Positions 1 through 42,877 of a stretch of DNA of 64,000 nt are shown piece by piece. Below the pieces are notes generated by a model that worked only from the letters and a program-made list of their open reading frames with translations, had not been told where the DNA came from and did no database searches. Made by a program: the position numbers and the translations under genes. Every line of letters begins with the position of its first letter. The stretch's first letter is position 1. Source of the stretch: a virus. Lineage: Duplodnaviria; Caudoviricetes. The stretch lies in the IMG/VR virus record IMGVR_UViG_3300028392_002123, one strand, 5' to 3'.

Positions 1-76
1 ATTCCGCTTTTTGACCTAACCAGGTAAAAAACTTTCCATGAGCACGACCAATTGCATTTGCAAATTTAACTATCAT
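1..76 (-). CDS. Partial ORF (MIVKFANAIGRAHGKFFTWLGQKAE...) directly downstream of the tmRNA CCA end; runs off the window
   Basis: AAGGA SD followed by ATG at 76; frame stays open to position 1. Confidence 0.55.
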   Translation of the reverse strand, partial: MIVKFANAIGRAHGKFFTWLGQKAE

Positions 77-90
77 AACAAACTTCCTTA

Positions 91-155
91 TGGTGGACCT
101 GGCGGGAGTCGAACCCGCGTCCAGAATCCTTTTCAATCGACTTCATACAGTCTTA
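91..155 (-). ncRNA. ssrA: tmRNA 3' (acceptor) piece, probably of a permuted two-piece tmRNA
   Basis: Minus strand reads ...TTCTGGACGCGGGTTCGACTCCCGCCAGGTCCACCA: T-arm GCGGG/TTCGACT/CCCGC, GGAC motif, U70 for the G3:U70 Ala identity pair, A73 and encoded CCA. No 5' half lies upstream. Confidence 0.8.
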
Positions 156-161
156 ACTTAC

Positions 162-190
162 ATTATATATTTATTTTGTAGTTTTGTCAA
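162..190 (-). promoter_or_regulatory. Consensus sigma70 promoter for the tmRNA acceptor piece
   Basis: TTGACA (190-185), 17 bp, TATAAT (167-162). Confidence 0.85.
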
Positions 191-1175
191 CAAGATTATC
201 TCGAAATATTTCCCAAGCATGTTCCCATGTCCATCGTTGGCTACCTTGCCAAACTTGTTTTCTATTTAAACCCAAACAACGATGAACCGCTGTTGCAAGA
301 TTGTTGTCCATAAATCCTGTAATACCTTGATCTATGACATCTTCTGGACCTTGACAAGGATACGCGGCCACGGGTGTACCGCAGGCCATTGCTTCGATCA
401 TAACTAGTCCAAATGTTTCCCACTGACTAGGAAATACAAATACATCTGCTAGATTATAGTAATATGCTAGTTCAGCGCCTGTTTTAAATCCTACAAATTC
501 TACCCTAGGATATCGTTTCTTGTATGTGTCTAACATGGGCCCATCGCCGACCATAATTTTCTTGGCTCCAGGGTAGTCCATCTTAAAAAAATCTTCTAAG
601 TTTTTTTCTTTACTAACACGACTAACACAGACCAGAGTAAGACCGGTATTTCTACGTTGTTCTCTTGGATAAAATATTTCTCTGTCGACACCACGTGTCC
701 ACGGAAGTACTTCACCATCAAAGCCATGCGACTTTAACTCTGCGACCATCGAATCTGTAGTTGTTAAAACCTTGCCACTATGTTTATGAAACCAGCGTAC
801 AAATCTCCAAGTAAGTGACTCAGGTATACCAAATAGCTTTCTGAGCCCTTCAGGAAACTTAGTGTGATAAGCGGTATTGTGGCGAATATCGCCCAATGAA
901 AGATATGCTCTAGCCCACAGACCAAGAGGACCTTCTGTGGCGATGTGGATATAATCCGGATTGATCTCCTCAATCTTCTTGCCCAAGTTCCTGGGATAGG
1001 CAATCTTGACTTCGTTGTAGCCAGGGCAACTAATGTAGCGGAACCACCCGGGATGAAGCACCACAACGTTATAACCATCCAAAATCGCACATGTCTCAAT
1101 ATTCTTGTAAGTTGTAACCACGCCATTAATTTGATCCGGTAAGTTATCTGTTATTATCAGTATTGTTTTTGTCAT
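171..1175 (-). CDS. agt: GT4 glycosyltransferase, Agt-like (diacylglycerol glycosyl/glucuronosyltransferase type)
   Basis: ITDN..QINGVVTT, IHIATEGPLG, AYHTKFPE, RGVD, SRVSKEKN, FPSQWETFGLVMIEAMACGTPV; adjacent to plcP-like gene. Confidence 0.75.
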   Translation of the reverse strand: MTKTILIITDNLPDQINGVVTTYKNIETCAILDGYNVVVLHPGWFRYISCPGYNEVKIAYPRNLGKKIEEINPDYIHIATEGPLGLWARAYLSLGDIRHNTAYHTKFPEGLRKLFGIPESLTWRFVRWFHKHSGKVLTTTDSMVAELKSHGFDGEVLPWTRGVDREIFYPREQRRNTGLTLVCVSRVSKEKNLEDFFKMDYPGAKKIMVGDGPMLDTYKKRYPRVEFVGFKTGAELAYYYNLADVFVFPSQWETFGLVMIEAMACGTPVAAYPCQGPEDVIDQGITGFMDNNLATAVHRCLGLNRKQVWQGSQRWTWEHAWEIFRDNLVDKTTK

Positions 1176-1920
1176 TTTCCTGTGTCCATGTAACTATTTC
1201 CCAGCGTCCGTCATGATGCTCTACCAGTGCTGTACATGACTCTACCCAGTCACCGTCATTCATGTATGTGACGCCGTCTATTTGTTTGATTTCAGCATGA
1301 TGTATGTGGCCACATATTACACCATCAAAACCTCGCTTCTTACAATAACCTGCTAGATTATGTTCAAACTTGAACATAAAATCTACAGCCTTTTTTACTC
1401 TGTGCTTAAGGAATTGGCTAAGGCTAAAGTACCCAAAACCAAAACGATGACGTATCCAATTGAATTTACTATTAAGCGATAAAATGATATCATATGCTCG
1501 GTCTCCTAAAAATGCTATCCACGGTGCCAGTCTAGTTATTCCATCAAACAAATCACCATGTGTGACAAGATAATGTTTACCGTCTGCACCTATATGTTCT
1601 ATTTGATTGTGTATTTCAACAAGTCCAAAACTGAAACCATAGGGTATCATCGGACGCAGGAATTCGTCATGATTTCCAGCCACGTATACAACCCTAGTGC
1701 CACGTTTACTATGACCAAGAACCCTACGAACGACATTGGTATGGCTTTGTTTCCATCGCCATTTGTTTTGTTGGATTCTCCAAGCATCTATGATATCTCC
1801 CACAAGGTATAGCGTGTCGCAGGTATTGTGTTTAAGGAAATTATTAAGAGCTTCTGCTTTACAATCTCTGGTACCTAAATGCACATCGGAAATAAAAATA
1901 CTGCGATAAGTCTTTAGCAT
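1144..1920 (-). CDS. plcP: Metallophosphoesterase, PlcP-type phospholipase (LpxH-like family)
   Basis: FISDVHLG, LVGDIID, GNHD (not the GNRD of LpxH), THGD, CGHIH, NDGDWVESCTALVE. Confidence 0.8.
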   Translation of the reverse strand: MLKTYRSIFISDVHLGTRDCKAEALNNFLKHNTCDTLYLVGDIIDAWRIQQNKWRWKQSHTNVVRRVLGHSKRGTRVVYVAGNHDEFLRPMIPYGFSFGLVEIHNQIEHIGADGKHYLVTHGDLFDGITRLAPWIAFLGDRAYDIILSLNSKFNWIRHRFGFGYFSLSQFLKHRVKKAVDFMFKFEHNLAGYCKKRGFDGVICGHIHHAEIKQIDGVTYMNDGDWVESCTALVEHHDGRWEIVTWTQENDKNNTDNNR

Positions 1921-1926
1921 AGCTAG

Positions 1927-1971
1927 TATTTATCGCAGTATCGTTTTTAAAAGATTACAAGTTAATTACAC
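1927..1971 (-). promoter_or_regulatory. Putative Pho box with -10 element, plus late TAAATA motif, upstream of plcP
   Basis: GTGTAAT-TAAC-TTGTAAT (11-bp period, 1971-1954), 11 nt, GATACT (1942-1937); TAAATA at 1932-1927, 6 nt before ATG. Confidence 0.55.
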
Positions 1972-2130
1972 TTAAATCCTTACCACAGTCCATTTAGTTG
2001 TAAATGGTTTACCTTCGGCCTTATGTTTCAGTATCTTTGCAAACTCTTTTTTACGTAGTTTAGCGATGGTTTCTGTATCGTGGTCGAAGCAAGCCTTGTA
2101 CAACTTCTGAATTAACTTTTGTTGTTTCAT
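1972..2130 (-). CDS. 52-aa basic hypothetical protein ([18 protein letters not shown]...), not in the ORF track
   Basis: Strong SD AAGGAGG, TAAATA upstream, open frame to TAA at 1972. Confidence 0.7.
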
Positions 2131-2162
2131 GGTATGCCCCTCCTTGAAAAATATTTATCAAT

Positions 2163-2187
2163 AAAAAAGGGCTTGTTATAAGCCCTT
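2163..2187 (-). terminator. Intrinsic terminator
   Basis: AAGGGCTT-ATAAC-AAGCCCTT followed by a T-tract. Confidence 0.8.
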
Positions 2188-2232
2188 AGTGCTGGTTACG
2201 AGTCTCCAGCGACACCCAATCTTGTGCCCGTG
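2163..2232 (-). ncRNA. Putative ~70-nt structured small RNA or leader of unknown family
   Basis: Intergenic. Tandem hairpins GGCAC/GTGTC and GCTGG/CCAGC followed by a terminator; promoter-like elements directly upstream. Confidence 0.45.
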
Positions 2233-2236
2233 CTTT

Positions 2237-2271
2237 TATTTAAGCCTAAAGGTGTTACAATTATATTACAC
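2237..2271 (-). promoter_or_regulatory. Second putative Pho box upstream of the small RNA
   Basis: GTGTAAT-ATAA-TTGTAAC (2271-2254, 11-bp period), 11 nt, TAAATA (2242-2237); a TATAAT (2265-2260) is also embedded. Confidence 0.5.
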
Positions 2272-2441
2272 TAATTTTTAGTGTCATAGGGTTTTAAAAA
2301 ATCATCATTCATACTATCTTCGTCAAAGTTATCCCAATTATAAGTGGCAACCTTGTATATCCAATAGCCATGTAATCCCACCACTATAATTAGTAACAGT
2401 ATATTACTGAGCACAGGTACGAGTTCTTGTAATTGTACCAT
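2271..2441 (-). CDS. Small single-pass membrane protein
   Basis: Hydrophobic stretch VLSNILLLIIVVGLHGYWIY; start moved to the internal ATG at 2441. Confidence 0.5.
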   Translation of the reverse strand: MVQLQELVPVLSNILLLIIVVGLHGYWIYKVATYNWDNFDEDSMNDDFLKPYDTKN

Positions 2442-2718
2442 CTGGATTTTGTACTTCTGTCCAAGGACTACAGTTTTGACTTTGTCCATAATATGGTGCA
2501 GGTTGTGGCTGCACAATAACAGGTTGTTGCTGTACAACTACTGGAGGCTGATTGCGAGCAATTTCATAACCGATTACACCACCGATAACAGTTGGTGCTA
2601 CCCAAACCCAAGGGTTGGGGCCACTGCGATATTGCCAATGACCATGTCCATGATAATGTTGTGCAAATGCTGGTACTGCGGCACAGACTAACAATAATGT
2701 TGCTAATACTTTTTTCAT
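2404..2718 (-). CDS. Secreted Pro/Gln-rich hypothetical protein
   Basis: Signal peptide MKKVLATLLLVCAAVPAFA, second hydrophobic segment, PVVVQQQPV repeats. Confidence 0.7.
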   Translation of the reverse strand: MKKVLATLLLVCAAVPAFAQHYHGHGHWQYRSGPNPWVWVAPTVIGGVIGYEIARNQPPVVVQQQPVIVQPQPAPYYGQSQNCSPWTEVQNPDGTITRTRTCAQ

Positions 2719-2719
2719 T

Positions 2720-3373
2720 TTAGTTCTCCATTTCTTTTAACTTACTACGAAATTCATCAGTGAATCTTCCATCTACTCTAAAACTGCATCTAAGTCCTGG
2801 TGCAGATTTGGTTTCATGTGTTTTATAGCTGTTAAAATAATTAACGCAGGAAGCGGGTGTTCCGTTGACATATAATTCTTTTTTGAGCAAAGGATTTGGA
2901 TTTGTTAGCCAAATAAATTCTGGTGTGCTTCTAAATCCTATAGGAGCTCTTGTTAAATCCTGATCCACATGTGGAGGAGTATAACTATTTCCCAGCTGTA
3001 TAAAAACTATTTGTCGGCCGGTGCCTTGAAATATATTCAGATCGGCAATCCAATTGGATACTTCTTTAAAATTTTTCATTGCATCATCTTCCATCCAAAA
3101 ATCTGAATTTCCCAATTGATACCATGCCGAATTCCACTTTGATAAGTCTTTAGGTCTAGTCAATAGTACATCCATGTTACCGATGTCATCTCCTGTGATC
3201 AAAGACTTGTACCATTTAAATTCTTCGGCGGTAGTGAAATCTCTAGGAGTTGCACCATCGTAGCCATAGAATACACTGGCTTTTCTCCTCGACTTAGCAA
3301 TACCTCGATAAAATACGTCCCATGGGAAGGTATTGATGTCAATGATACTGGATAAATCGTAACAGTCTTTCAT
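2720..3373 (-). CDS. Probable 2OG-Fe(II) oxygenase (Asp/Asn beta-hydroxylase-like fold)
   Basis: HxD (PPHVD), distal His (THET) and C-terminal R-x-S-x-R pattern. Confidence 0.5.
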   Translation of the reverse strand: MKDCYDLSSIIDINTFPWDVFYRGIAKSRRKASVFYGYDGATPRDFTTAEEFKWYKSLITGDDIGNMDVLLTRPKDLSKWNSAWYQLGNSDFWMEDDAMKNFKEVSNWIADLNIFQGTGRQIVFIQLGNSYTPPHVDQDLTRAPIGFRSTPEFIWLTNPNPLLKKELYVNGTPASCVNYFNSYKTHETKSAPGLRCSFRVDGRFTDEFRSKLKEMEN

Positions 3374-3380
3374 CTTGTAT

Positions 3381-3536
3381 TTATTTTATAATCTTTAAAA
3401 ATTTTAAAAGATTATAGAATCTAGACTTATACGGATCTGCTAGTACTTGTTCTATATAACTAGGATGATGCGGACATCTTCCCTGCTTATAGTCGCACTC
3501 AGGTGAGTATTGTCTGTGACAATTTTTGCATTGCAT
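3381..3536 (-). CDS. Small Cys/His-rich hypothetical protein
   Basis: MQCKNC...C...CPHH; start moved to 3536. Confidence 0.55.
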   Translation of the reverse strand: MQCKNCHRQYSPECDYKQGRCPHHPSYIEQVLADPYKSRFYNLLKFLKIIK

Positions 3537-4098
3537 TTTTCTTTTCCTCACAGGGTTCGCAAATTGTGCGGACCCATCCGCCACCTCGGCGTTCGCCGGG
3601 GTTACCGCACGATTCGCAAGTACAGCCACTCATAGCTTCTGCCATAGTAACCATTCCTCTAATATAGTCATCACCGCCTGTGTAGTAAAAACGTAGTGTG
3701 CCAAACTTTTCTTTAACTTGGTCCAATGTCACTTGGGGAACAAGTTCTGGAACATCACGCAAAGGATTCTTAATCATTTCTTCGCAACGTTCACGGATGT
3801 AGTCTGCACCGATAGTTGGCTGGTCTGCGTACTCTTTAGCAACCAAATCAGCAAACAATTCTGCATTACCACTCTTGCCAGCTTGTGCCATTTCGTTATA
3901 CTTGACGGCCCAATCACGCTGACGTTCCTTCCAATCGATGTGATGTTGGATATTGCCCATAAGTTGATTAAGGATGTTGTACCAACCATCTCCACATTCA
4001 AAGCCCCAGCACATACAAGTTTCTGTCATAGGCTTGTTGCGATTAACCATCATCTTAGGATACTTTTCACATAGCAATGCGTCTAGTTCTTGTTTCAT
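3499..4098 (-). CDS. Conserved phage hypothetical protein (QVKEKFGTLRFY family, C-terminal Zn ribbon)
   Basis: GDGW and QVKEKFGTLRFY motifs; CESC...CEPC. Confidence 0.75.
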   Translation of the reverse strand: MKQELDALLCEKYPKMMVNRNKPMTETCMCWGFECGDGWYNILNQLMGNIQHHIDWKERQRDWAVKYNEMAQAGKSGNAELFADLVAKEYADQPTIGADYIRERCEEMIKNPLRDVPELVPQVTLDQVKEKFGTLRFYYTGGDDYIRGMVTMAEAMSGCTCESCGNPGERRGGGWVRTICEPCEEKKNAMQKLSQTILT

Positions 4099-4106
4099 AT
4101 CGTTCC

Positions 4107-4301
4107 TTATGTATAATCTCGTAGTACGAAATCAATGGCTTCTATCATTTTAGTGTTATGTTCCACATCTTCAGGATGTAGCCATTCACCTTTTTTAAAA
4201 CCTCTTAATTCTTTTTTTAAGTAATCTTTATAATCATTTAAATTAAGAACTGTTATCTTGTCTGCTGTTTCTTTATCAATTGTTAAATCAAATTTACTCA
4301 T
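4107..4301 (-). CDS. Hypothetical protein
   Basis: AAGGA SD, operon context. Confidence 0.6.
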   Translation of the reverse strand: MSKFDLTIDKETADKITVLNLNDYKDYLKKELRGFKKGEWLHPEDVEHNTKMIEAIDFVLRDYT

Positions 4302-4852
4302 AGTGTCTCCGTGTCAAATGGCCATTTATTAGCTTTATTTTCTTCATGCCATTTTTTTATTTCTACAGCAATTTCTTCTTTGGTACGTAGTTTTACATTT
4401 TCTTCAATGACGGTACCATCATCTTCGCATAAGCTAACTTGGTACGGTGCATCAATAACAAGATAGTCATCTTCAACTTGCCAATCGTGACTGCCATCAA
4501 ACAACCATGCCGCGCCGCCACGCTCATCGTCGTCGTTGGGATCGCCTTCTATATAGCATATTTTAATGTGTTCTTGTTCTTCTTCTGAAATATCATCACT
4601 AAACTCAAACCAGCAGGCGTGTTGGTCGTCTAGTTCAGCACCCCATCCGCAGTCCATTTTAGCATGAGCTTGGATATCCCCTTCAATGGGCAAGTTACAT
4701 GCCATGTCTTCTTCAACAAACCCTTGCCCCCAGCGATAGTGATCGTCAACGTTGAACCAGCTGATAGAACCGTCTGCATTGTCACGATACATTTCAACGT
4801 GCCAGCAAATGCTCTTTTTATGTAAGGGTTTGATTAGGTATACTTTAGACAT
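4298..4852 (-). CDS. Acidic hypothetical protein
   Basis: ORF track; overlap-coupled to neighbours. Confidence 0.7.
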   Translation of the reverse strand: MSKVYLIKPLHKKSICWHVEMYRDNADGSISWFNVDDHYRWGQGFVEEDMACNLPIEGDIQAHAKMDCGWGAELDDQHACWFEFSDDISEEEQEHIKICYIEGDPNDDDERGGAAWLFDGSHDWQVEDDYLVIDAPYQVSLCEDDGTVIEENVKLRTKEEIAVEIKKWHEENKANKWPFDTETL

Positions 4853-5355
4853 TATTCTTCTACAAAGTTAATTACATTGCCATCTTCATCTGCACATATA
4901 ATACGTACAGTTTCGCCTGCTTCGTTTTTGATTTCAATTGGTCCCCAAATCCACCATTCGGTTTCATCGTTGTACCAGGAATCATCTTCACGATCTTCTA
5001 ATTCATAGATGCTATTTTCATCAATAAACTCTTGAATCTCTTCTTCCTCTTCTTCTGTAAGATCTTCAAATTCTACATCATACCAGCAACCACCGTCGAA
5101 CATTTCAACAAGTTCAACACTTTCAATATTGTTAACTTCGCAGTCTAGCATATTGATACTGTCTTTACGACCATCACCGCCGGGTACTTCTGTAAACTCA
5201 AATTCTGGCGGATTGTCGTCTGTAGTTTCTACAGTCCATTCGCCATAACGATAACCGTTAGTGACTGTGATTCGACCATCGCCTTCTCGTCGAACCCAGT
5301 GTTCAACTTCTTGGCAAGATTTTTTGTGATAAGTGCTAACAGTCCACTGTGCCAT
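4852..5355 (-). CDS. Acidic hypothetical protein, probable distant paralogue of 4298-4852
   Basis: Similar N-terminus (HKKS), acidic core and W-rich segment. Confidence 0.7.
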   Translation of the reverse strand: MAQWTVSTYHKKSCQEVEHWVRREGDGRITVTNGYRYGEWTVETTDDNPPEFEFTEVPGGDGRKDSINMLDCEVNNIESVELVEMFDGGCWYDVEFEDLTEEEEEEIQEFIDENSIYELEDREDDSWYNDETEWWIWGPIEIKNEAGETVRIICADEDGNVINFVEE

Positions 5356-5365
5356 ATATTTCCTT

Positions 5366-5539
5366 TCAGTTATCTATAATAGGCTTACATTTATAATCTT
5401 TATCACATTCTTCAAATGAACCATCTTGTGTATTCATACGAACTATGCGATCTTCTACTACACCAAATGTGTATTTGGCATTGTTAACTGCGGGCATTGT
5501 TACTTGATAAACCAATATCAAAATCATTATTATTTCCAT
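5366..5539 (-). CDS. 57-aa hypothetical protein (MEIIMILILVYQ...), not in the ORF track
   Basis: AGGAG SD; open frame read manually. Confidence 0.55.
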   Translation of the reverse strand: MEIIMILILVYQVTMPAVNNAKYTFGVVEDRIVRMNTQDGSFEECDKDYKCKPIIDN

Positions 5540-5550
5540 TACTATCTCCT

Positions 5551-5573
5551 AAAAATGAGGAATAAGGTTCCTC
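5551..5573 (-). terminator. Possible intrinsic terminator
   Basis: GAGGAA-CCTTA-TTCCTC followed by ATTTTT. Confidence 0.5.
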
Positions 5574-5618
5574 TAATTTAGTTAGTGTAATATATGCCAT
5601 CAGCTATAATATTTTAGT

Positions 5619-5885
5619 TTAACTATTTTCTTTTTTCTTACGTTTTGGTTTAACTTCTGCGCTTGCAGGAATCTTACTTTCCGCTTTTAGTATAGCATCT
5701 CGTACGTCTCTTGTCAATGCTTCATCATCCCATTCTAATTTAGTAGAACCGTCAGCAAATGTGGTCACAGTTAAGTGACTACCTTTTACTACTTTTGGTT
5801 CGTTTGGAAATACCAACTTGGCGCTGCCAATAGTGCCAGGCATTTCTAGTGTAGTGTTTTCGGATTTCTTTTTACGTGTTGCCAT
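5619..5885 (-). CDS. Basic-tailed hypothetical protein
   Basis: AGGAG SD; ORF track. Confidence 0.7.
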   Translation of the reverse strand: MATRKKKSENTTLEMPGTIGSAKLVFPNEPKVVKGSHLTVTTFADGSTKLEWDDEALTRDVRDAILKAESKIPASAEVKPKRKKKENS

Positions 5886-6051
5886 TTTTGTCTCCTAAAG
5901 GTGTTACTGGACGATTAACGCAGAACTCACATGTTGGATCATCGCATTTAGATTCTAACCACTTATTACAAGTGGTACAATAGTATGCATCGTACTCTTC
6001 CGAGTACGATTTTTTATTTTCACATTCGCAGTAATTTGGATTTAAGTCCAT
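5872..6051 (-). CDS. 59-aa Cys-rich, probably metal-binding protein, not in the ORF track
   Basis: MDLNPNYCECENKKSYSEEYDAYYCTTCNKWLESKCDDPTCEFCVNRP...; fills the gap between two ORFs. Confidence 0.6.
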   Translation of the reverse strand: MDLNPNYCECENKKSYSEEYDAYYCTTCNKWLESKCDDPTCEFCVNRPVTPLGDKNGNT

Positions 6052-30201: not shown

Positions 30202-30750
30202 AAGATTCATCTGTAACATAATAGCCGTGGCATAGCCGATGGCATGGCTACGCTTAAAACTATAAGAATCATCTGTCTTAACCCATACTTCTTTTTCTAT
30301 CTCCGGCCAAGTTTTATAAATTAAGTGTCTCTTACCTGGACGTATAACTGCCAAGACAGCGGCCAGTTGTTCTACACTACGTGGCTTTAACTTTTTAACA
30401 ATGTCTGCATGATTGTGTATGTGGAATAACTCTTTGATAACATCTTCGTGTTCAAGTAATTCCCAAACTGGTTCTTTTTCCAGTAACAGATCTATTTGAG
30501 CATTGTCGGTGAACTGACTATAGATGCCCACGTTCAACAAGTCTATTTTAAACCAGCCTTGTTCTTCGGCAGTCTTATAGTCTAACGTGGCTAAGCCAGT
30601 AAAAGGATTTACAGGAACATTATGAAAATAAACTCCTGTGTTATGTTTACGCTGTGTTGCTCCATCTTTTTGCATGGCCGGAACACAAGAAAACAATTTT
30701 AAAACTTGTTCTCTGTCTGCGAAATCAATGTCGACGTCTGTGGTTACCAC
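30169..30750 (-). CDS. dnaE: Miniature DNA polymerase III alpha (DnaE)-like catalytic-core protein
   Basis: TDVDIDF, RKHNTGVYF, GWFKIDLL, AVIRPG, YSFKRSHA motifs in only 193 aa. Confidence 0.8.
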   Translation of the reverse strand: MVTTDVDIDFADREQVLKLFSCVPAMQKDGATQRKHNTGVYFHNVPVNPFTGLATLDYKTAEEQGWFKIDLLNVGIYSQFTDNAQIDLLLEKEPVWELLEHEDVIKELFHIHNHADIVKKLKPRSVEQLAAVLAVIRPGKRHLIYKTWPEIEKEVWVKTDDSYSFKRSHAIGYATAIMLQMNLLVYGIDSGKS

Positions 30751-31537
30751 GATCTTCCTTTTCTAATATGTTATTATACATTAGTTCTTCTACTTTTGCC
30801 AAACGAATTTTCTTATTTTTTGAACCTAGTATAACCAATGTGTATACCTGATCTTTATTTTCCACTGTCATGGCCACACACCAGCCAGCGGCATTGGTCA
30901 GTCCTGTCTTACTTGCAACAACACTACGAAACTCACTGAGTATTGATTTATTGGTATTAACCAATGTAACTGTTTTAATCTTGTTTTTATATTTGACATC
31001 AAATGATTGTTCCTGTGTGGTTGTTAATTTGGCAATCATATTATATTTTGTTGCTTCTTTCATCATTATTGCAACTTCTTCAGCTGTGCTTGTATTAAAA
31101 ACACTAAGACCTGAAGGATCCATGAATCTCGTATTAACCATGCCAAGATCTTTGGCTTTTTGATTCATTGCTCGTAGAAAACCTTCTCGACCTCCGGGAT
31201 AATCAGATGCTATTGTTTCAGCAGATGCATTGTCACTGCGAATAAGCATAGCAGACAATACATCCAATCTCGTGTTCTCTTTTGAAGGTAATTGACTACG
31301 CAGTTTGTCGTACATGGATAATTTCTTATCCATGTCCAAACTATAGTCTAAGGCAACCATGGCAGTCATTAACTTGCTGATACTGGCAATAGATCTAACT
31401 TCTTTGGAGTTGTCGCCTATCATTACTAGATTAGCTGTTTGATTATATAAAAAAATTGATGGATGTCCCTGTGGAGCTGACTTGGCAAACACCGTGTTAA
31501 GAAACAAAAAAGATACTAGTAAAATTATGTTTTTCAT
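30725..31537 (-). CDS. Peptidase S11 D-Ala-D-Ala endo/carboxypeptidase (PBP7/PbpG-like), exported
   Basis: Signal peptide; SxxK (IASISK), SxN (SDN), KTG (KTGLTNAAG). Confidence 0.9.
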   Translation of the reverse strand: MKNIILLVSFLFLNTVFAKSAPQGHPSIFLYNQTANLVMIGDNSKEVRSIASISKLMTAMVALDYSLDMDKKLSMYDKLRSQLPSKENTRLDVLSAMLIRSDNASAETIASDYPGGREGFLRAMNQKAKDLGMVNTRFMDPSGLSVFNTSTAEEVAIMMKEATKYNMIAKLTTTQEQSFDVKYKNKIKTVTLVNTNKSILSEFRSVVASKTGLTNAAGWCVAMTVENKDQVYTLVILGSKNKKIRLAKVEELMYNNILEKEDRGNHRRRH

Positions 31538-37509: not shown

Positions 37510-39588
37510 TTAGAATACACTACGAACCATAACACCAACAGCATTACCTGTTTGACCTGACATACCACCGACGTTAAACTGTCGAGCAAAGTTGATGCCT
37601 GCATAAGTTGTATTGCCAACACTGACATTATAGCCTAACACCAAATCAGTTTGTCTAGTATTGTTGGCAAGATTAACACGTTCTGTGGTTGATGTTGGAC
37701 TAGCTGTTACATTATCATCGGCGCCACTATAAGTGTAGCCTGTAACTGCTGTCACGTCTGCATAACCTCGACGCACAGATACTGGACCTTGTACTGCAAA
37801 AGTTACTTGATCCTTGGTCTTACCGCTGAAGAAGATATCTTTCTTAGCTAGACCAACTTTCCAAGTGTCGCTGATAATAGTTGAACTCAATGCCAGCATA
37901 CTGTCTTGTGCATTACTTGTTCGTGTAATGCCAAGACCATAACTACCAATCAAATCCACACTTCCAGTAATTGGTGTTGAACCGCCCACCATTGCGTATG
38001 TAGTGTTACTATTACCCATGCCTAACAAGCCCGAGCCATAGTTGTTTAAAAAACCATTTTGTTCAGTCATTGCACCTACTTGTAGTTGCAATCTACCATT
38101 GCCATATGCTGTGTCGACTTGACTGGCAAAACCATTTTGACTTTGCATGAAAGTTAATACAGTATCTTTACCATAAGGAACTGCAAATTCTCGATAGTTA
38201 ATAGCATTTATTGCCAAGTAAGGACTGGTATACAAACTGTTAGCGGGATTACTAACGCCCATGGCCTTAGTAAAGTCGGAGGTAAAGTTTCTGTTAATAC
38301 CATCAACTACTTGGACATTGGCTAACACGGTGCTGGATCGCAGAGAGTTAATGCTCAACGAAGCACCTGTGGCAGTTAATGCTGTACCGCCAACTGGTGT
38401 ACCCGAAGTCAGTGCTGCCTTAGAGTATTTGATGTCTGCATAAGGCTGTGTGGCCTTGTCAAAGTTCACCATACCTTTTCCATAGACATTACTGTCACCC
38501 AAAGACGTAGCAGTATTCAAAACAACTTGTACCAACTGACTTGCTTTGAGCTGTGGCCATGCCTGATGCATCAATGCAATACCGCCACTGACTTCTGCGG
38601 CCGCTGGGCTTGTACCACTAACACCGCCAGCACCATTTGTAATATTAGAAGAAATACCTGCTGTGCTACGAGCTTGGTCTGGTACTGCACCCCAGATACT
38701 ACTACCCGGTGCTACAACATAAAAGTCTTTGACATAGTATTTGTCTTGACATACATTGGCAACAATGTTAGAACAGATACTACCAGCTTGGTTGCTACTA
38801 GCATCCATTACCCAACCACCCTTACCATCACCCTTAACATTACCAACAATTAGTACACGACCACCTAACAATAAATTACCATTGGCATCTGTCTGTGTAG
38901 CAAATGCACCTGGAAATTGTGCATAGCCTGTACCGCTGTTGCCTGCGCTGGCAACGATCACTGATGATCTTGTTGCTGTTGCAAATGCGTTAATGTCAGA
39001 AATTTTGTTACCAAAAACACTGGCCATTGCTCCGGTACTGGTGTTTGTATAGCGCGGGTCAGCTCGATAAATTCCAGGAGCCATCATAGTAGTGCCAGCT
39101 TTAAAATTGGCATCATAAGTAGCACCTAGACTCAAATTAATTACTGTGGCACCTTTACTGTCTGCCCAAGTCATTGCCTGCAACACTGATGCCATGCTAA
39201 CACCTGTAGTGGTGCCACCACTACCAACCTGTGCCAATAAAAGTTTGGCATCGGGTGCAACACCAACTGTACCCGAATTGTTAGCAACACCGCCGGCAAT
39301 ACTGGCCATCTCTGTGCCATGCAAGCCCCAATTAGTAACTGTACCTGGATAAAAGTTTTTAGCTTCTAAAAGATTGCCTTTAATGTCTGTGTGATCAAGT
39401 GCAAAGCCTTGGTCAACGACTGCAATAATAGAACCTTTACCTGTGATGCCACGACTCCAAGCGGCAGTGGCACCAATTGTAGTAAGATAAGATGATTTAG
39501 CATTAGCTTCTGCATTGGCTACCTGAGCCTGCACACTTCCTACGAATGATGCTACTGCCAGTGCTGTGAGTGTAAGTTTCAAGTTCAT
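37510..39588 (-). CDS. Subtilase (S8) serine protease with signal peptide and autotransporter-like C-terminal beta domain
   Basis: AVVD, HGTEMA, SAGN, GTSPAA triad motifs; alternating beta strands ending ...VMVRSVF. Confidence 0.85.
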   Translation of the reverse strand: MNLKLTLTALAVASFVGSVQAQVANAEANAKSSYLTTIGATAAWSRGITGKGSIIAVVDQGFALDHTDIKGNLLEAKNFYPGTVTNWGLHGTEMASIAGGVANNSGTVGVAPDAKLLLAQVGSGGTTTGVSMASVLQAMTWADSKGATVINLSLGATYDANFKAGTTMMAPGIYRADPRYTNTSTGAMASVFGNKISDINAFATATRSSVIVASAGNSGTGYAQFPGAFATQTDANGNLLLGGRVLIVGNVKGDGKGGWVMDASSNQAGSICSNIVANVCQDKYYVKDFYVVAPGSSIWGAVPDQARSTAGISSNITNGAGGVSGTSPAAAEVSGGIALMHQAWPQLKASQLVQVVLNTATSLGDSNVYGKGMVNFDKATQPYADIKYSKAALTSGTPVGGTALTATGASLSINSLRSSTVLANVQVVDGINRNFTSDFTKAMGVSNPANSLYTSPYLAINAINYREFAVPYGKDTVLTFMQSQNGFASQVDTAYGNGRLQLQVGAMTEQNGFLNNYGSGLLGMGNSNTTYAMVGGSTPITGSVDLIGSYGLGITRTSNAQDSMLALSSTIISDTWKVGLAKKDIFFSGKTKDQVTFAVQGPVSVRRGYADVTAVTGYTYSGADDNVTASPTSTTERVNLANNTRQTDLVLGYNVSVGNTTYAGINFARQFNVGGMSGQTGNAVGVMVRSVF

Positions 39589-40780: not shown

Positions 40781-40809
40781 ATTATAGCAGGGCTACCAAT
40801 TTCTGTCAA
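40781..40809 (-). promoter_or_regulatory. Early sigma70 promoter
   Basis: TTGACA-GAAATTGGTAGCCCTGC-TATAAT. Confidence 0.9.
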
Positions 40810-40872
40810 TTATTGTTATTTTTGGTTTTTATTGTTATTTGCTAGAAATTGCTTTCCTGCCGCCATACATGT

Positions 40873-40901
40873 ATTATAGCAGGGCCGCCAATTTCTGTCT
40901 A
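40873..40901 (-). promoter_or_regulatory. Tandem early sigma70 promoter, near-duplicate of the previous one
   Basis: TAGACA-GAAATTGGCGGCCCTGC-TATAAT. Confidence 0.8.
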
Positions 40902-40992
40902 TTTTTGGGTATTTAATAAGTTAGTATACACTAACTTAAAATAGCCTGAATTTCTGGGATTTTTGTCAATTTTTGATGAATTTTGACAGTGA

Positions 40993-41012
40993 CAAAAGGG
41001 GCTAGGCCCCTG
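40993..41012 (-). terminator. Intrinsic terminator
   Basis: AGGGGC-CTA-GCCCCT followed by TTT. Confidence 0.7.
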
Positions 41013-41032
41013 TTGTCGTTTACCCTGTCTAA

Positions 41033-41284
41033 TTACTTAGATGCGGCAACAACGTCTTCTGCAGACGTTTCAACTGACTCGGGGAGTACAAACAAATTAG
41101 TTGCACGAACATGGGCAAGAGCCGCGTCCTTGGTCATAGCTTCAGGAAGCTCATACAAGTCCACATCAGTGTGACCATTTTTGATCAACACTTTAACGCG
41201 GGTCATATCGTTTGCGAAACGAACTTTAACCTTGCCATTAAGGTTAGATTTACCGATAACTTTAAAAAGTTTAGAAGTAGCCAT
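41033..41284 (-). CDS. Conserved small phage protein
   Basis: Own promoter TTGACA (41366-41361), 17 bp, TACAAT; AGAGGA SD; terminator. Confidence 0.75.
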   Translation of the reverse strand: MATSKLFKVIGKSNLNGKVKVRFANDMTRVKVLIKNGHTDVDLYELPEAMTKDAALAHVRATNLFVLPESVETSAEDVVAASK

Positions 41285-41349
41285 TTTACATTTTCCTCTG
41301 TGTGTGTAAAAATTGTACAGAACGTCTGTACACCGTTATTGTAGCAAAT

Positions 41350-41517
41350 TCAATCATTTGTGTCAATATCTTTTTTACCAAATTTTTCCAATTTTTTACG
41401 ATTGTACAATTTGGCACTAGGCACTGACTGACTACGGAATTCGCCACTATGGAACAAGAAATCAGCACGGCGCTTGGTGCGTGGCACTTTAACGATGAGC
41501 TTGTTTACTTGTTTCAT
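41350..41517 (-). CDS. 55-aa basic protein resembling ArfA, not in the ORF track
   Basis: LFHSGEFRSQSVPSAKLYNRKK; promoter TTGACA-18-TATAAT at 41568-41539. Confidence 0.55.
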   Translation of the reverse strand: MKQVNKLIVKVPRTKRRADFLFHSGEFRSQSVPSAKLYNRKKLEKFGKKDIDTND

Positions 41518-41564
41518 ATTCTTTTTCCAATAAATGCTATTATAGCATTATTTGGTATTTATTG

Positions 41565-41798
41565 TCAATCAAAATCTTTCTTATTGCCGTTGGCTTCGTT
41601 GTCTCGATAGCCTGCGGTGTATGCTAGAATTTCTTGGACACTCATATCCACCAACTCGATGCGAGTGCTGTTATAACTGTCGCCGGTAAAATAGTGTGGA
41701 TTATATTCACGACCATAGTAGCTGTCTGCTTGGCCGCGATCGTATGGACCACCATGACGTTCATTGTAGTAAACTGATTGTAATTGTTCTACCAACAT
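41565..41798 (-). CDS. Early hypothetical protein (HGGPYDRGQADSYY family)
   Basis: Probable start MLVEQL after AAGGA SD; own promoter at 41852-41824. Confidence 0.7.
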   Translation of the reverse strand: MLVEQLQSVYYNERHGGPYDRGQADSYYGREYNPHYFTGDSYNSTRIELVDMSVQEILAYTAGYRDNEANGNKKDFD

Positions 41799-41832
41799 AT
41801 CTGTTCCTTGTTTTGATATATGTATTATACTG

Positions 41833-41859
41833 CCAAAACCAATTTCAGTCAATTATTGG
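41833..41859. repeat. 27-bp exact direct repeat, copy 1 (contains an early -35 element)
   Basis: CCAAAACCAATTTCAGTCAATTATTGG. Confidence 0.9.
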
Positions 41860-42019
41860 TGAATTCCAACTCTGCCAGGGCTTCTTCAAGAGATTCAAAC
41901 CCCGCGGCATCATATGAGCCATCATAAAGTTTAACATAGAAACGGCCGTTGCCAGGACTGGCTTCTGTGTCAATGCCAACTTCACCGACATCTTTGATAA
42001 TCTTAATAGCAAAGTCCAT
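41849..42019 (-). CDS. 56-aa acidic early protein, not in the ORF track
   Basis: AAGGAG SD; MDFAIKIIKDVGEVGIDTEASPGNGRFYVKLYDGSYDAAGF... Confidence 0.65.
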   Translation of the reverse strand: MDFAIKIIKDVGEVGIDTEASPGNGRFYVKLYDGSYDAAGFESLEEALAELEFTNN

Positions 42020-42028
42020 GACAGCTCC

Positions 42029-42232
42029 TTAGACGTTTGACATTTTCATTATGATAGCCAACTCATCATTCTCCACATAGAAGTCTGTGGTCGGATCGTA
42101 GTAGGCACCTTCTTTTGGATCGTAGTAAAGAACTCGACCATCGTAGTTGAAAGGACCTTCCAAGCCTTTGCGGGCAGTATATTTTTCACGCATATTGTCC
42201 ACAGAATTCATAACACGATAACCCATTGCCAA
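42029..42232 (-). CDS. Early hypothetical protein (YYDPKEGAYYDP family)
   Basis: AAGGAG SD; own promoter at 42281-42253. Confidence 0.75.
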   Translation of the reverse strand: MAMGYRVMNSVDNMREKYTARKGLEGPFNYDGRVLYYDPKEGAYYDPTTDFYVENDELAIIMKMSNV

Positions 42233-42261
42233 CTCCTTGTTTCTAAGTATTAATTATAACA

Positions 42262-42288
42262 CCAAAACCAATTTCAGTCAATTATTGG
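42262..42288. repeat. 27-bp exact direct repeat, copy 2
   Basis: Identical to 41833-41859. Confidence 0.9.
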
Positions 42289-42514
42289 CAAATTTTCCAT
42301 GCTGGAAGAATTTCCACATGCACCAAGTAGAATTATCCATTCCCATTAGAATACCTTCATAGTCAAGGTATGAACAATGTGCCCATTCAGATACTCGCAC
42401 ACCACGCCAATCTACTTCTTTGTTATGGCGAGTAACCTGTGACTTGGCTACGGATTCAGTTTTGTAATACCGTTCTCCTCGGCCGGTTTCTTTGTTATAA
42501 ACTATCCAACCCAT
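42278..42514 (-). CDS. Early hypothetical protein
   Basis: ORF track. Confidence 0.65.
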   Translation of the reverse strand: MGWIVYNKETGRGERYYKTESVAKSQVTRHNKEVDWRGVRVSEWAHCSYLDYEGILMGMDNSTWCMWKFFQHGKFANN

Positions 42515-42515
42515 A

Positions 42516-42782
42516 TCAAACCCTATAAGAGTTATAACTACGAATCTTGCTTCGTTTGTTGGTATAACTTTCTTGAAATTTAATCTTAAAACCTTGAGCC
42601 TGTAAAGTGTTAATCAGTGTGGACAAATCACAGTCTTCTTCCAAAAAGGCATTAGCACCATTTTGATAACTGTAAGGAGTGATCTTGTCAGCAATACCAA
42701 GTTTAACCAAGCGAGCTTTAGGGAAACGGGCCCAAGCATGACCAGAGTCGCCGAATACTTTAATTTTGATTTCTTTGGACAT
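42516..42782 (-). CDS. Early hypothetical protein (D.GHAW...LEEDCD family)
   Basis: AGGAG SD; promoter TTGACA-17-TATAAT at 42842-42814. Confidence 0.75.
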   Translation of the reverse strand: MSKEIKIKVFGDSGHAWARFPKARLVKLGIADKITPYSYQNGANAFLEEDCDLSTLINTLQAQGFKIKFQESYTNKRSKIRSYNSYRV

Positions 42783-42877
42783 ATCAACTCCTGTTTTGTT
42801 ACACTATGCCATTATTATAGCGCAGGAGTGAATTTCTGTCAAATTTTGGTGATTATTGGAAAAGTAATACTTTGGTT

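Follow-up and report, generated by a model that had tools for sequence, protein, structure and literature searches.

We asked what a tmRNA-like 3′ end is doing at the very edge of a 64,000-nt stretch of phage DNA (hereafter the window, by which the whole analyzed stretch is meant). This 3′ end begins ∼10 nt downstream of a perfect TTGACA-17-TATAAT promoter on the minus strand, and fewer than 100 nt remain between it and position 1. A sequence-only reading of the window had offered two answers: that the phage carries a permuted tmRNA with a coding piece situated past the edge of the window, or that it expresses a stand-alone acceptor piece that could pair with, or compete for, host tmRNA/SmpB. 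With a probability that we put at nearly nine in ten, window 91-157 on the minus strand is the acceptor piece of a permuted tmRNA with its coding piece beyond the window edge; we hold with the same confidence that it is an acceptor piece of the betaproteobacterial two-piece type and that the phage is an uncultured freshwater giant T4-like phage.

A tmRNA-like acceptor end follows a promoter at the window edge

The features of the locus are collected in Table 1. A T-arm, an acceptor 3′ strand, a discriminator, and CCA were all found within 128-91 on the minus strand behind the promoter, just where the sequence-only reading had placed them. At an E-value threshold, the Rfam models matching the window were RF00023 (42.8 bits, E 2e-15) and RF04321, tmRNA_permuted (32.8 bits, the match being cut off by the window edge). 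Neither match reached the Rfam gathering score of 47, nothing was returned at gathering thresholds, and ARAGORN called no tmRNA in the window, as would be expected with only half a gene present. U97 is placed to pair with G3 in the acceptor stem, the G partner lying beyond the window edge. The 5′ strand GGGCCTG was indeed missing from positions 1-90, as had been noted, and the search for this motif or a coding piece elsewhere in the 64-kb window gave chance-level matches only. A megablast search of window 1-6000 against 50,697 phage records returned no match. Contigs from RNA runs that aligned to window 1-600 covered mainly 80-134, a stretch common to all tmRNAs, and gave no specific expression signal.

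Table 1. Features of the locus, in window coordinates
Feature	Position	Strand	Details
Intervening sequence (spacer), first 90 of 219 nt	1-90	-	100% identical to L120, L121, L202, and L203
63-codon ORF, first 25 codons in the window	1-76	-	SD AAGGAAG 89-83; ATG 76-74; runs off the edge
Probable acceptor piece of a circularly permuted tmRNA	91-157	-	Rfam; identity to L083/L035; covariation in 75 distinct family members
Acceptor 3′ strand CAGGUCC	101-95	-	followed by discriminator A94 and CCA 93-91
T-arm	118-102	-	stem GCGGG 118-114, loop UUCGACU 113-107, stem CCCGC 106-102; preceded by GGAC
P2a strand GAUUCUG	128-122	-	5′ part of the acceptor piece
P2b strand GACUGU	152-147	-	5′ part of the acceptor piece
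Sigma-70-type (T4 early-like) promoter	162-190	-	-35 TTGACA 190-185; 17-nt spacer; -10 TATAAT 167-162
Family 4 glycosyltransferase gene (upstream neighbor)	171-1175	-	Pfam Glycos_transf_1, E 3e-23; not part of the tmRNA

Chance does not account for the promoter. The window contains 14 near-consensus promoters (at most one mismatch), all on the minus (coding) strand, compared with 1.2 expected from shuffles, indicating that the phage uses such promoters systematically. A promoter was found at the equivalent place in the homologous loci L083, L155, L203, L227, and L230; that of L083 differs from the window's by a single base change, in the -10 element. The predicted transcript start lies at ∼154-157 on the minus strand. 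The glycosyltransferase gene ends upstream of the acceptor piece, in line with the earlier reading: its stop codon (173-171) falls inside the promoter spacer, so that the promoter overlaps the 3′ end of the gene. The placement of the locus is syntenic, since in L155 the promoter and the acceptor 5′ part of the window recur directly after a glycosyltransferase homolog.

Elsewhere in the window, five or six near-consensus promoters that share a common spacer motif (GAAATTGG...) are crowded within 2 kb (40781-42842, minus strand). This cluster looks like a repeated early-promoter cassette ahead of small ORFs.

Homologous loci carry complete permuted tmRNA genes

At least 119 IMG/VR contigs share with the window an exact 32-mer that covers the T-arm and acceptor end, and ARAGORN, which had been proposed as a check and was silent on the window itself, called a permuted tmRNA (tmRNA*) in 115 of the loci fetched with this 32-mer. 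Counted from the start of the gene, the acceptor end of the called loci lies at ∼60 nt and the tag frame at 180-440 nt. Many of the loci on which ARAGORN was silent have the 32-mer within ∼300 nt of the locus end, several of them within ∼100 nt, as is the case for the window.

Two loci, L083 and L035, have acceptor pieces identical to that of the window from the transcript start through CCA, and both are complete permuted tmRNA genes with the tag ANDSQFALAA. L083 scored 113.6 bits on RF04321 and 119.8 bits on the beta_tmRNA model RF01850 (gathering score, 84), and L035 scored 109.1 and 103.5 bits, respectively; over the complete homologs, the scores ranged from 77 to 124 bits for RF04321 and from 104 to 120 bits for RF01850. 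When the acceptor piece of the window was cofolded with the coding piece of L083, P1, the T-arm, and a GACUGU/ACAGUC helix were predicted to form. A consensus fold of 75 distinct tRNA-like domains, each made up of the coding-piece 5′ end and the acceptor piece, comprised P1 with an invariant G3.U pair (75/75 members), the T-arm, and two inter-piece helices, P2a and P2b. Both inter-piece helices covaried with compensatory pairs; at one P2a pair, for example, UA was found in 33 members, CG in 31, and GC in 6. The window strands GAUUCUG and GACUGU fit the coding type of L083 and L227.

Five large related contigs were also compared with the permuted-tmRNA model, and each of them matched it, four with 99-140 bits (above the cut-off) and one with 25.5 bits at a contig end. 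Since none of these five contigs encodes SmpB, the phage tmRNA presumably depends on host SmpB. Among 185,579 representative cellular genomes, the 32-mer matched only standard one-piece tmRNAs and no permuted tmRNA; the matches fell in Bacteroidota, Opitutaceae, and Geobacteraceae MAGs and gave no clue to the host.

Several variants of the gene were observed among the homologs. Tandem permuted tmRNA genes are present in L202 (= L225; 1-660, minus strand) and also in L222 and L224; in L202/L225, the second acceptor piece directly follows the first coding piece, and the contig again ends at GATGGG. A non-canonical T-loop, GGCAGUG, on a GCGGG or CCGGG stem replaces UUCGANU in L216-L221 (∼3207-3270), in the second copy of L202, and in L224, and such genes were missed by ARAGORN, although a coding piece comes next and contains a tag frame. 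In L155 (3835-4722), the T-loop is interrupted by an ORF whose opening residues resemble, by eye, a GIY-YIG homing endonuclease; a second acceptor piece in L155 has a different, compensating acceptor stem (GGGGGAG/CUCCUCC) and is followed by its own coding piece. Among cultured phages, the L083 acceptor piece matched the records H16-H32 (Stenotrophomonas phages Mendera, Moby, Yut2, and others) at ∼79% over 73-77 nt. The matched site is labeled ssrA, tmRNA, or tRNA-Leu in some records and carries no annotation in others, suggesting that these phages have acceptor-first tmRNA genes that are inconsistently annotated.

The spacer leads into a coding piece in other contigs

The first 90 nt of the spacer are all that the window holds, and two contigs identical to it over this stretch, L120 and L121, end 2-23 nt beyond the position of the window's edge, whereas L202 and L203 read through. 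The exact 63-aa product of the spacer ORF is on record in 12 contigs; in nine of those 12 contigs compared, the whole 219-nt spacer is 99.5-100% identical. In all 10 contigs read, the spacer leads into a coding piece, which starts with GGGCCTG in each case except L231 (AGGCCTG), and a tag frame and a terminator follow wherever the contig is long enough.

The sequence-only reading had called for an extension of the contig past position 1. In the freshwater run X1, a 243-nt unitig matched window 1-107 with zero differences and extended 136 nt past position 1. Its length corresponds to 17 nt of the acceptor piece (107-91), the 219-nt spacer, and the 7 nt of GGGCCTG. By this reckoning, the unitig ends on one side at a polymorphic T-loop base and on the other just after GGGCCTG, which is the predicted position. 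Its depth was 177, compared with 4.8 for the glycosyltransferase flank, indicating that the spacer is common to many genotypes in the sample. The complete homologs, the passage from spacer to coding piece in other contigs, and the X1 unitig together support the view that the window carries a permuted tmRNA with its coding piece beyond the edge.

The window contig breaks in a shared spacer. Three assemblies break here because the spacer is shared by many genotypes, and because assemblies break inside such genes, ARAGORN and Rfam at default thresholds see nothing.

A further assembly breaking in a permuted tmRNA gene was seen in the relative G003, an IMG/VR contig of 367,104 nt rated 100% complete, which ends exactly inside the acceptor stem of its permuted tmRNA (L236, 1630-1761). 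The missing acceptor part was not found at the other end of the G003 contig, and no circular closure was shown for it.

Acceptor and coding pieces covary across an identical spacer

Among contigs with the identical spacer, three types can be told apart by an acceptor 5′ part and a coding piece that vary together. In type A, CAUUCUG occurs with CAGGGUG and AGUUG with CAACU; in type B, represented by L227, GAUUCUG occurs with CAGGGUC and ACUGU with ACAGU; and in type C, represented by L230, GAUUCAAG occurs with UUGGGUC and GCUGU with ACAGC. The window is itself a mosaic, in which an L083-type acceptor is joined to an L203-type spacer. Its acceptor is of type B, and from the pairing strands a B-type coding piece is predicted to follow.

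Such a mosaic could also mean that the window holds a mismatched or decaying copy, or a chimeric contig end, that yields little or no working tmRNA, a second gene elsewhere doing the job. Besides the joining of an L083-type acceptor 5′ part to an L203-type spacer, two observations are in keeping with this explanation: L229 has an A-type acceptor and the shared spacer followed by a C-type coding piece with an unfit P2a strand (1746-2181), and L216-L221 retain a remnant of the acceptor 5′ part upstream of the ORF. The L229 arrangement arose either during assembly, as a chimera across the shared 243 nt, or in nature, as a mismatched recombinant. Against a mismatched copy in the window, acceptor and coding types match across the identical spacer in eight of the nine contigs that read through it (A-A in six, B-B in L227, and C-C in L230), and the window has an intact promoter and acceptor piece, identical to the ones in complete genes. 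We therefore consider a defective or chimeric copy improbable and retain the reading of the window as part of a permuted tmRNA gene whose two pieces match.

The spacer contains a small protein gene

The SD of the 63-codon ORF starts 2 nt after CCA. The product of this ORF has homologs in 14 clusters that share 78-92% identity, are all 63-65 aa long, and have invariant NPWW, EHIAGP, and TGH motifs. In comparison with the L216 homolog, 31 codons differ only synonymously and five non-synonymously, the differences by codon position numbering 5, 6, and 34. Judged from these sequence comparisons, the ORF is a real gene; searches of Pfam and PHROGs with the 63-aa protein found no family, and these databases assign no function to it. 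In L216-L221, the 63-aa homolog lies upstream of the acceptor piece and not in the spacer.

Spacers of the family were surveyed more widely. The 88 distinct spacers are variable, measuring 53-273 nt, and an ATG ORF covers at least 70% of the spacer in 29 of them (about a third). Of the 22 spacers that are at least 115 nt long, 18 have such an ORF. The ORFs start 6-14 nt after CCA, mostly behind an SD such as TAAGGAG that directly follows CCA, and the length of most of them was matched by at most ∼2% of 500 shuffles.

In loci read by eye, a TGA (or TAA) recurs a few nucleotides before the GGG of the coding piece (for example, L123 16020-16035), and TGATGGGCCTG precedes the coding piece in L083, L123, and L202. 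The TGA ahead of GGG may be the stop codon of some spacer ORFs; if so, the mRNA left after RNase P cleavage would end 1 nt past the stop. The window-type 63-codon ORF stops 20 nt before the TGA that precedes GGG.

Since the same 219-nt spacer is found in three co-varying tmRNA backbones, it seems to have spread by recombination in invariant flanks, which would be the T-arm and acceptor end on one side and GGGCCUG on the other. Whether the spacer is a mobile protein-coding cassette that spreads in this way between the tmRNA genes of co-occurring phages, with the pre-tmRNA serving also as its messenger, is in our judgment an evenly balanced question. In such a case, the very cuts by which the tmRNA matures would also set free the messenger of the cassette gene.

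The locus belongs to a T4-like giant phage and is unlikely to be an integration site

The window encodes a T4-type large terminase, a tail sheath protein, gp15, UvsX/RecA, a gp32-like protein, both RNR subunits, and a DnaB-type helicase. Among cultured phages, the giant Pseudomonas phage PA5oct group (53%) and giant phages of Sinorhizobium and Agrobacterium have the closest terminases. Relatives were also traced through the glycosyltransferase; these are freshwater IMG/VR contigs measuring up to 524 kb. Genes for a D-Ala-D-Ala carboxypeptidase (30725-31537, minus strand; Peptidase_S11, E 6e-37) and a 692-aa subtilase (37510-39588, minus strand; Peptidase_S8, E 7e-32) sit among the replication and structural genes.

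The other answer offered by the sequence-only reading was that the window expresses a stand-alone acceptor piece, a small, CCA-ended, tag-less RNA that would compete with host tmRNA for SmpB, AlaRS, or EF-Tu. In its favor, the window shows no coding piece, and a tag-less tmRNA-like RNA of mycobacteriophage DS6A that inhibits host tmRNA is described in the 2025 tmRNA database paper (PMC11915505). Without its 5′ partner, however, a free 3′ acceptor strand has nothing to form an acceptor stem with. Moreover, every homolog with the same acceptor piece or spacer has a coding piece, and the X1 unitig ends on GGGCCTG at the predicted distance. A stand-alone piece is thus not needed to explain the locus, and we regard it as highly improbable.

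The remaining possibility, an attP or integration remnant in which a copy of the 3′ end of host ssrA was used or left by a site-specific integrase, draws on the facts that tmRNA 3′ ends are common integration sites, that the fragment alone resembles one, and that the same 32-mer ends standard tmRNAs in some of the bacterial MAGs mentioned above, but it is very unlikely, the least probable of these explanations, because the genome is that of a T4-like giant phage, no integrase domain was detected in the 30 window ORFs scanned (both neighbors of the fragment, where an integrase had been named as the sign of such an origin, included), the fragment has its own conserved promoter, its homologs continue into a spacer and a coding piece, and its 5′ part, unlike an att site, covaries with the coding piece. 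The account that follows takes the locus to be the acceptor half of a permuted tmRNA gene.

A model for expression of the permuted tmRNA

From the homologous loci and from what is known of tmRNA, we infer the coding piece of the window's gene, its processing, and its function as follows. The sigma-70-like early promoter would start transcription 3-6 nt before the acceptor piece, so that the 5′ end of the acceptor piece is probably the end of the primary transcript. The transcript would comprise the acceptor piece (∼65 nt, with its CCA end), then the 219-nt intervening sequence with its SD-led 63-codon gene, and, reached ∼130 nt beyond window position 1, the coding piece with the 5′ strand GGGCCUG, the P2 strands, pseudoknots, a tag frame that probably ends in ALAA, and a terminator. 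The spacer would be excised by tRNA-processing enzymes, with RNase P acting at GGG and 3′ trimming at CCA, and the two pieces would then pair via P1 (with its G3.U), P2a, and P2b. Charged with alanine, the tmRNA would work with host SmpB in rescuing stalled ribosomes during infection.

Comparison with known two-piece tmRNAs

Two-piece tmRNAs of aquatic T4-like phages, namely the OM43 phage Melnitz and pelagimyophages, have been published (Buchholz et al. 2022, PMC9004378); in the same study, 18,146 phage genomes yielded 53 two-piece tmRNAs, of which 50 were aquatic. The permuted ssrA of these aquatic T4-like myophages resembles the window's locus in lying directly behind a sigma-70-type early promoter and in the lack of an integrase (30 ORFs scanned in the window), and like the homologs of the window's gene it is detected by ARAGORN as permuted. 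The sequence-only reading had thus overstated how unusual the locus is, since phage two-piece tmRNAs behind early promoters were already on record. The Melnitz gene differs in being of the alphaproteobacterial type, with a glutamine riboswitch in its 3′ domain, whereas the window's lineage is, by its scores, of the betaproteobacterial type (RF01850). In further contrast to Melnitz, the window comes from a freshwater giant phage related to PA5oct (53% terminase identity) and has a protein gene in its spacer. Huge phages have also been reported with tmRNAs (PMC7162821).

The betaproteobacterial two-piece tmRNA (RF01850; RF04321), for which PMC9004378 cites Sharkady and Williams 2004, shares with the window's family the order of acceptor piece, intervening sequence, and coding piece, as well as the G3.U pair, the inter-piece P2 pairing, and a tag ending in ALAA. 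Unlike the cellular betaproteobacterial tmRNA, the window's gene is carried by a lytic-type phage, in a family whose spacers of 53-273 nt hold small ORFs in about one-third of cases.

Cargo in the spacer of a permuted gene has a precedent. The 2025 tmRNA database paper describes two kinds of spacer cargo in permuted genes, a tRNA-Ala gene and a repetitive element, each as a unique case (PMC11915505). The window resembles these cases in that its spacer carries cargo, here an SD-led protein gene; a protein gene in a tmRNA spacer is not mentioned in the passages of PMC11915505 retrieved by term search. A full-text literature search for a permuted tmRNA with an intervening sequence and an open reading frame returned nothing relevant. 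The phage two-piece tmRNA gene itself is thus mostly ordinary, and the small protein gene in its spacer is less so; it is the exchangeable protein-coding spacer that may be new.

Implications for phage biology

With this locus, a freshwater giant-phage lineage gains a betaproteobacterial-type two-piece tmRNA whose promoter is mapped. In such a phage, the tmRNA probably helps to keep ribosomes free while host mRNA is degraded. Small genes are frequent in the "throw-away" spacer of these genes, which may pass from one phage to another; if this is true, the precursor of a stable RNA would double as a messenger.
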